The position numbers and the translations under genes were made by a program. A model generated the notes under the pieces. The model worked only from the letters and a program-made list of their open reading frames with translations. It was not told the origin of the DNA and did no database searches. From assembly GCF_003334385.1 (NCBI RefSeq), contig NZ_QOWN01000022.1: DNA of 64,000 nucleotides; one strand, written 5' to 3'. Positions 17,628-17,680 of this stretch are shown here, in pieces. Positions within the stretch are counted from its first letter, which is position 1, and every line of letters starts with the position of its first letter. This DNA comes from Escherichia coli (GTDB lineage Bacteria > Pseudomonadota > Gammaproteobacteria > Enterobacterales > Enterobacteriaceae).

Positions 17628-17680
17628 TAACATCCAGGCGGCGTCCGAACGCGCCGCCGCTCATCGTCTAAGGAGTACTT

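Follow-up and report, generated by a model that had tools for sequence, protein, structure and literature searches.

A conserved stem-loop between pspA and pspB of Escherichia coli as a probable 3′ protective element of the pspA mRNA

The analyzed DNA is a stretch of 64,000 nucleotides (nt) from Escherichia coli, hereafter referred to as the window. The psp locus of E. coli K-12 occupies the part between 15.8 and 18.9 kb, with 100% identity to MG1655. It comprises pspF and, in the opposite orientation, a σ54-type promoter followed by the pspABCDE operon and its intrinsic terminator (Table 1). The psp region was found in 5422 of 5426 complete E. coli genomes. Among the ∼5420 psp-region matches in this collection, six are located on plasmid-typed records, and in one chromosome (NZ_AP023286.1) an IS1 element is inserted inside the region. 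In the phage-shock envelope-stress response, PspA is the abundant effector and also exerts negative regulation, and PspB and PspC are low-copy membrane sensors. The dependence of pspA on PspF and σ54 is established and has been restated (PMC3467454). Because PspA, PspB, and PspC are all produced from one σ54 promoter, their ratio must be set after the start of transcription. The spacer between pspA and pspB carries no feature in the RefSeq annotation; a GC-rich hairpin that is located in this spacer is the subject of the present analysis.

Table 1. Features of the psp locus in window coordinates
Feature	Position	Strand	Basis or remark
pspF	15815–16807	−	
σ54-type psp operon promoter, TGGCAC-N5-TTGTA	16892–16907	+	Sequence; one mismatch to the TGGCAC-N5-TTGCW consensus
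pspA coding sequence, stabilized upstream segment	16959–17627	+	ORF list; 100% match to the MG1655 pspA annotation
pspA stop codon TAA; second in-frame TAA	17625–17627; 17628–17630	+	Sequence
Hairpin: 5′ arm; loop CCGAAC; 3′ arm	17637–17658: 17637–17644; 17645–17650; 17651–17658	+	Fold, conservation, listing in S6 Table (PMC5927463)
In vivo RNA 3′ end of the pspA-only transcript, 3–4 nt past the stem	17661–17662	+	Dar and Sorek 2018, S6 Table; Adams et al. 2021
pspB Shine-Dalgarno sequence AAGGAG, beginning 11 nt past the stem end	17670–17675	+	Sequence
pspB	17681–17905	+	ORFs, RefSeq annotation; faster-decaying downstream segment (17681–18494)
pspC	17905–18264	+	ORFs, RefSeq annotation; faster-decaying downstream segment
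pspD	18273–18494	+	ORFs, RefSeq annotation; faster-decaying downstream segment
pspE, last gene of the operon	18569–18883	+	ORF list, RefSeq annotation
Operon intrinsic terminator after pspE, 9-bp stem and T-run	18897–18927	+	Terminator scan (18897–18918); Term-seq end 1370041 (window 18921)

Several other elements were observed in the window. A perfect TATAAT is present at 18529–18534, 35 nt upstream of the pspE start and without a well-spaced −35 element. In the Term-seq data of Adams et al. (2021), the 3′ end at the pspE terminator had ∼4-fold more reads than the pspA end at OD 0.4, and at OD 2.0 no other psp 3′ end was listed. The TATAAT sequence and this Term-seq pattern are consistent with separate expression of pspE. 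The intergenic region between puuE and pspF contains two weak, sub-threshold matches to the REP-derived Rfam family naRNA4 (15678–15738 and 15763–15805), which probably mark REP elements. Farther downstream, a perfect 13-bp palindromic hairpin (37151–37179; −21.4 kcal/mol on both strands) separates the convergent ORFs 35574–37142 (plus strand) and 37186–37692 (minus strand), and it looks like a shared bidirectional terminator.

The stem of the pspA-pspB hairpin begins at the tenth nt after the pspA TAA stop codon. Its arms are GGCGGCG (17637–17643) and CGCCGCC (17652–17658), with TCCGAACG between them (17644–17651). RNAfold adds a closing U17644·G17651 pair to the seven G-C pairs, which results in a stem of 8 bp and a 6-nt loop. 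The calculated energy is −15.4 kcal/mol, with 88% of the ensemble in the hairpin structure and a z-score of −3.55 (1 of 200 dinucleotide shuffles folds equally well). The hairpin has the GC-rich stem-loop of an intrinsic terminator. However, the 8 nt that follow the stem, GCTCATCG, contain only 2 T, and a U-tract was defined here as 5 or more T within 8 nt, counted from 0–2 nt past the stem. The terminator scan made no call at the hairpin on the plus strand, while the same scan detected the terminator after pspE, which thus serves as an internal positive control. A preliminary description of this DNA had placed a GC-rich hairpin at 17637–17658, 10 nt after the pspA stop codon, and had argued that the missing T-run sets it apart from classic intrinsic terminators. 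The sequence, the fold, and the conservation analysis confirm the former, and the T count and the terminator scan agree with the latter. A terminator-like match on the minus strand (17652–17630) was dismissed, as there is no converging gene and the stem pairs in a different, weaker register.

Hairpins of comparable stability are not rare in this DNA. The plus strand of the window contains 26 hairpins of −14 kcal/mol or lower within at most 30 nt, corresponding to approximately one per 2.5 kb per strand and to an expectation of ∼2% per 53-nt spacer. The single sequence is therefore not compelling alone, and the case rests on comparative and experimental evidence. The same frequency would fit an explanation in which the hairpin is a chance GC palindrome, or a remnant of a REP/BIME element, of which REP-like examples lie nearby between puuE and pspF. 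Chance is ruled out by the compensatory base changes described below (8 of 8 pairs, 72 distinct sequences). An origin from REP/BIME was rejected, as the hairpin is a single-copy sequence: it is found once in the window when up to three mismatches are allowed, and of 5426 complete E. coli genomes, 5420 carry it at one place only. An Rfam scan of positions 15000–20000 (E ≤ 10) gave no match at 17600–17700.

Conservation was analyzed in 80 loci, obtained by scanning one genome for each species with PspA; they come from Enterobacteriaceae and a few Erwinia, Pantoea, and Pectobacterium. A spacer hairpin of −12 kcal/mol or lower is present in 78 of 80 species; when the cutoff is loosened to −11 kcal/mol, this number becomes 79 of 80 Enterobacterales species, with 65 distinct hairpin sequences, and the sole species without a spacer hairpin is Pantoea coffeiphila (L074). 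The median energy is −16.05 kcal/mol, compared with −8.2 kcal/mol for dinucleotide shuffles of the same spacers, and for 62 loci the observed energy was not matched by any of 30 shuffles. The position is also maintained: the stem starts a median of 8 nt after the stop codon (interquartile range 7–9) and ends a median of 14 nt before GGAG. In E. coli and E. albertii, the 22-nt hairpin is identical and the flanks are variable. A structure-blind MAFFT alignment of 70 distinct spacers was scored on an explicit 8-pair structure; 88% of the cells are paired, double changes occur in 6 of 8 pairs, and the observed covariation score was reached by none of 500 column shuffles. RNAalifold on the raw MAFFT alignment recovered four pairs only, with several rows mis-registered, and was set aside in favor of the explicit 8-pair structure and a realignment based on a covariance model (CM). 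In the CM-based alignment of 72 distinct sequences, 92.8% of the cells are paired and compensatory changes are found in all 8 pairs (76 compensatory cells), compared with 22–68% paired cells and 2–7 compensatory cells in slid-partner controls; here, too, the observed score was reached by none of 500 shuffles. At one stem position, A-U (34) and G-C (33) are almost equally frequent. These substitution patterns point to the structure, rather than the sequence, as the object of selection.

The absence of a U-tract is itself conserved: of 79 species, 74 have three T or fewer among the first 8 nt past the stem. Together with the conserved stem, this argues for selection on a hairpin that does not terminate transcription. 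More T-rich tails were observed in a few lineages: 5 T in 8 nt in L065, in L072 (a locus labeled Citrobacter freundii), and in Erwinia (L075), and 4 T in Atlantibacter (L073), with GCTTTTTC as an example from these spacers. Judged from the sequence, the hairpin in these four loci resembles a weak terminator and may be a true attenuator there.

A search for PspA homologues returned close Enterobacteriaceae relatives only. Eight distant pspA-pspB loci were reached through PspB representatives; four of them have a stable spacer hairpin, and the other four have short AT-rich spacers without a hairpin, so the element is not universal among pspAB operons. In several loci, the spacers are 100–165 nt long and contain extra structured inserts (L055:2669–2834, L062:2666–2813, L063:2666–2806, and L051:2669–2774; the spacers of L077 and L079 are 101 nt long), which look like repeat or MITE elements. 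In these long spacers, the GC hairpin adjoins pspB in Raoultella and adjoins pspA in Kluyvera intermedia, where the insert is located downstream of the hairpin.

Published transcriptome data place an RNA 3′ end at the base of the hairpin. Dar and Sorek (2018, PLoS Genet, PMC5927463) searched E. coli operons for segments that decay at different rates and reported pspA/pspB as a differentially decaying pair with a stabilized upstream gene (S3 Table). Their Term-seq 3′ end in BW25113, with the upstream sequence ending in ...CGCCGCCGCT / ...CAGGCGGCGTCCGAACGCGCCGCCGCT (S6 Table), corresponds to window position 17661, 3 nt past the stem, and their fold of the structure has an energy of −16.8 kcal/mol. 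In Salmonella SL1344, the 3′ end lies 4 nt past the homologous stem GGCGGCGC...GCGCCGTC (S5 Table). Adams et al. (2021, eLife, PMC7815308) mapped a primary pspA 3′ end in MG1655 at 1368782(+) in LB at OD 0.4. This is window position 17662, given an offset of 1351120 that was checked on the pspE terminator end (1370041, window 18921). The pspA peak is missing from the LB OD 2.0 sheet of the same study, and its table of Rho dependence with and without bicyclomycin (BCM) has no pspA entry. The preliminary description had proposed Term-seq or a Northern blot to look for a pspA-only transcript, and RNA 3′ ends at the stem are mapped by Term-seq in BW25113, MG1655, and Salmonella SL1344. Uniform coverage without a 3′ end, which it had named as the outcome that would speak against its proposal, is contradicted by the published Term-seq and half-life data. 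Full-text searches did not find a paper devoted to a stem-loop or terminator between pspA and pspB, or to a Northern blot of this region, and the searched literature contained no stem-disrupting or compensatory mutation at this hairpin. It is already on record as a probable mRNA-stabilizing structure, tabulated in 2018 and re-detected in 2021. What is added here is the breadth of conservation (79/80 species, 65 variants, and covariation in 8/8 pairs), the conserved absence of the U-tract, and the comparison with two later, independent data sets.

The half-lives of the mRNA segments differ across the hairpin. In E. coli, the pspA/pspB half-life ratio is 2.12, a value from one external data set (Moffitt 2016) given without standard deviation, and the steady-state mRNA ratio is 2.72 ± 0.16 (S3 Table, PMC5927463). 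In Salmonella SL1344, the steady-state ratio is 3.95 ± 0.26 (S5 Table, PMC5927463). Salmonella half-lives were reported by Jenniches et al. (2024, PNAS, PMC10998600, Dataset S1): 5.63 min (4.26–7.36) for pspA, 1.83 min for pspB, 2.09 min for pspC, and 1.26 min for pspD. The pspA mRNA thus outlives the pspB mRNA 2.1-fold in E. coli and 3.1-fold in Salmonella, and these ratios account for most of the abundance ratios of 2.7 and 3.95, which are only ∼1.3-fold higher in both species. The residual ∼1.3-fold could be cross-study noise or a modest termination component. An older array study with overproduction of PspF found a polarity in the same direction, with pspA up 11.8-fold, pspB 3.6-fold, and pspC 2.4-fold.

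The half-life data also bear on the RNA chaperones. ProQ has been described as a protector of structured mRNA 3′ ends, and the pspA hairpin might accordingly be a chaperone site of this kind and not a self-sufficient barrier. Dependence on ProQ is disfavored, as the half-life of pspA in a Salmonella proQ deletion is 5.57 min versus 5.63 min (FDR 0.31; PMC10998600), and the supplement of one ProQ paper has no pspA entry. The group of explanations that comprises a chance palindrome, a REP/BIME remnant, and a chaperone site is extremely improbable in our view.

A 3′ end at the base of the hairpin cannot by itself separate trimming from termination. If some RNA polymerases stopped at the hairpin or just past it, either intrinsically or with the help of Rho, less pspB-E RNA than pspA RNA would be made, and the terminated transcript would also end 3–4 nt past the GC stem, as mapped. 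The ∼1.3-fold excess of the steady-state ratios over the half-life ratios in both species leaves room for ∼20–25% termination, and the lineages with 4 or 5 T in the tail could have a weak terminator. Against partial termination, the E. coli tail has no T-run and is passed over by the terminator scan, the T-run is missing in 74 of 79 species despite the conserved stem, and most of the pspA:pspB ratio is explained by differential half-life alone. An untranslated spacer of 53 nt with a strong, invariant Shine-Dalgarno sequence would moreover be a poor site for Rho loading. For the class of sites to which the hairpin belongs, Dar and Sorek (PMC5927463) found no uridine tract and no significant Rho-dependent termination in bicyclomycin data, and they interpreted these sites as barriers to 3′-to-5′ exonucleases according to the malE-malF model. 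Partial termination is therefore unlikely to be the main function of the hairpin, and because of the residual ∼1.3-fold it is kept as a minor alternative. The preliminary description had left the choice between a partial attenuator and a stabilizing 3′ structure that raises pspA relative to the downstream genes. The 3′ ends, half-lives, and abundance support the stabilizing structure, and the attenuator is not favored, with a small contribution possible.

We thus consider it very probable that the hairpin is an intercistronic 3′ protective stem-loop which acts as a barrier to 3′-to-5′ exonucleases. The sequence and the published data directly support the hairpin with its conservation and covariation, the 3′ end in two species, and the differences in half-life and abundance. 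Transcription from the σ54 promoter would run through pspABCDE up to the terminator after pspE; read-through into the downstream genes is seen in the co-induction of pspB-E with pspA. The terminator would then be removed by an endonucleolytic cut within pspB-E, the less protected part, with RNase E as the presumed enzyme. PNPase, RNase II, and RNase R would degrade the RNA from the 3′ end created in this way until they halt at the base of the 8-bp GC stem, leaving a pspA-only mRNA with a tail of 3–4 nt, too short for the exonucleases to re-engage. This species would live 2- to 3-fold longer than the pspB-D segments, and pspA mRNA would build up to ∼2.7- to 4-fold over pspB mRNA from one promoter. 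In this scheme, we infer which nucleases act, where the initiating cleavage occurs, and that the hairpin is the cause of the stabilization. In the published model, higher ribosome density on the stabilized gene steers the initiating RNase E cut downstream, and ribosome density on pspA could also add to its stability independently of the hairpin.

The same model, which includes low ribosome density on the destabilized gene, would also fit a translational explanation. In this case, the hairpin or a second helix would insulate or limit the initiation of pspB translation, and the effects on mRNA would be secondary to low ribosome occupancy. The second helix is formed between GCUCAU (17659–17664) and AUGAGC (17681–17686) in the minimum free energy structure of a 101-nt fold, and it encloses the pspB Shine-Dalgarno sequence, which is invariant in the 70-species alignment, and the start codon. 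Across 70 species, 73.7% of its cells are paired, compared with 19–61% in slid controls, and a few A-U double changes occur in a Lelliottia-like group. However, its 3′ arm coincides with the first two codons of pspB, which hardly vary, so that covariation is almost untestable, and Enterobacter, Klebsiella, and others have lost the GCTCAT arm but kept the main hairpin. Its covariation signal is weak and not separable from coding constraint, so that the helix is at present an unproven candidate. Since the mapped pspA 3′ end lies inside the GCUCAU arm, this helix would be possible only in the full-length mRNA. The main hairpin, in turn, ends 11 nt before the pspB Shine-Dalgarno sequence and does not occlude it, and translational control would not account for a sharply defined 3′ end at the base of the stem. 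We regard such control as a very unlikely basis for the observed differences.

The protective hairpin would be the simplest means of setting the ratio of PspA to PspB and PspC, and published data indicate that it has this effect. Beyond this, the hairpin might serve to time the Psp response, given that pspA mRNA outlives pspBC mRNA ∼3-fold, with a barrier that is possibly tuned by stress. If so, the message for the sensors PspB and PspC would be gone quickly after stress and the message for PspA, which is both inhibitor of PspF and effector, would persist, leading to faster shut-off of the response, and a PspA:PspBC ratio set by the hairpin would fix the threshold of induction. Tuning of the barrier strength, for example through cold-shock proteins, is a possibility; in a Salmonella cspCE deletion, the half-life of pspA was 4.0 min instead of 5.6 min, a decrease without statistical significance (FDR 0.17). 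Near-universal conservation in Enterobacteriaceae, for its part, shows only that the hairpin structure matters. We therefore present the timing role as a speculative and rather improbable extension.

The protective stem-loop proposed here can be compared with several known systems. Within the same operon, the terminator after pspE has a similar stem (−15.3 kcal/mol versus −15.4 kcal/mol for the pspA hairpin), and an RNA 3′ end is located just downstream of each. However, the terminator is followed by 8 T, and the pspA hairpin is followed by 2 T in 8 nt and by continued transcription into pspB-E. Small RNAs that are derived from 3′ untranslated regions of envelope-stress genes, such as CpxQ from cpxP, share with psp a stable, structured 3′ end after an envelope-stress gene. 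In contrast to these RNAs, the mapped 3′ end is only 34–35 nt away from the pspA stop codon and offers no U-tail to Hfq, and neither a sign of a separate small RNA nor an Rfam family match was found at pspA.

The closest parallel is the malE-malF stabilizer of the malEFG operon, the prototype of Dar and Sorek, which is listed together with pspA-pspB in their S3 and S6 Tables (PMC5927463). In both operons, a stem-loop without a U-tract follows the first and most abundant gene, an in vivo 3′ end is located at the base of the stem, and the half-life of the upstream mRNA is 2- to 3-fold that of the downstream genes. As a REP repeat, the malE-malF element has many genomic copies, and it is backed by direct deletion genetics, whereas the pspA hairpin is a unique single-copy sequence for which the data are genome-wide and correlative. 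[quoted passage not shown] With the protective hairpins of SRPS operons (Dar and Sorek 2018; SLOFE paper, PMC8219983), it shares stability, position at the decay boundary, absence of a U-tract, and conservation in Salmonella, and it is listed among the 26 E. coli structures of the S6 Table of Dar and Sorek. However, 17 of these 26 structures are located inside the downstream coding sequence (PMC5927463), and the pspA hairpin is truly intergenic. Its conservation is therefore not a by-product of protein coding, and its covariation signal is unusually clean. In summary, the intergenic, single-copy, and strongly covarying pspA hairpin represents a clean, textbook-style case among these structures.
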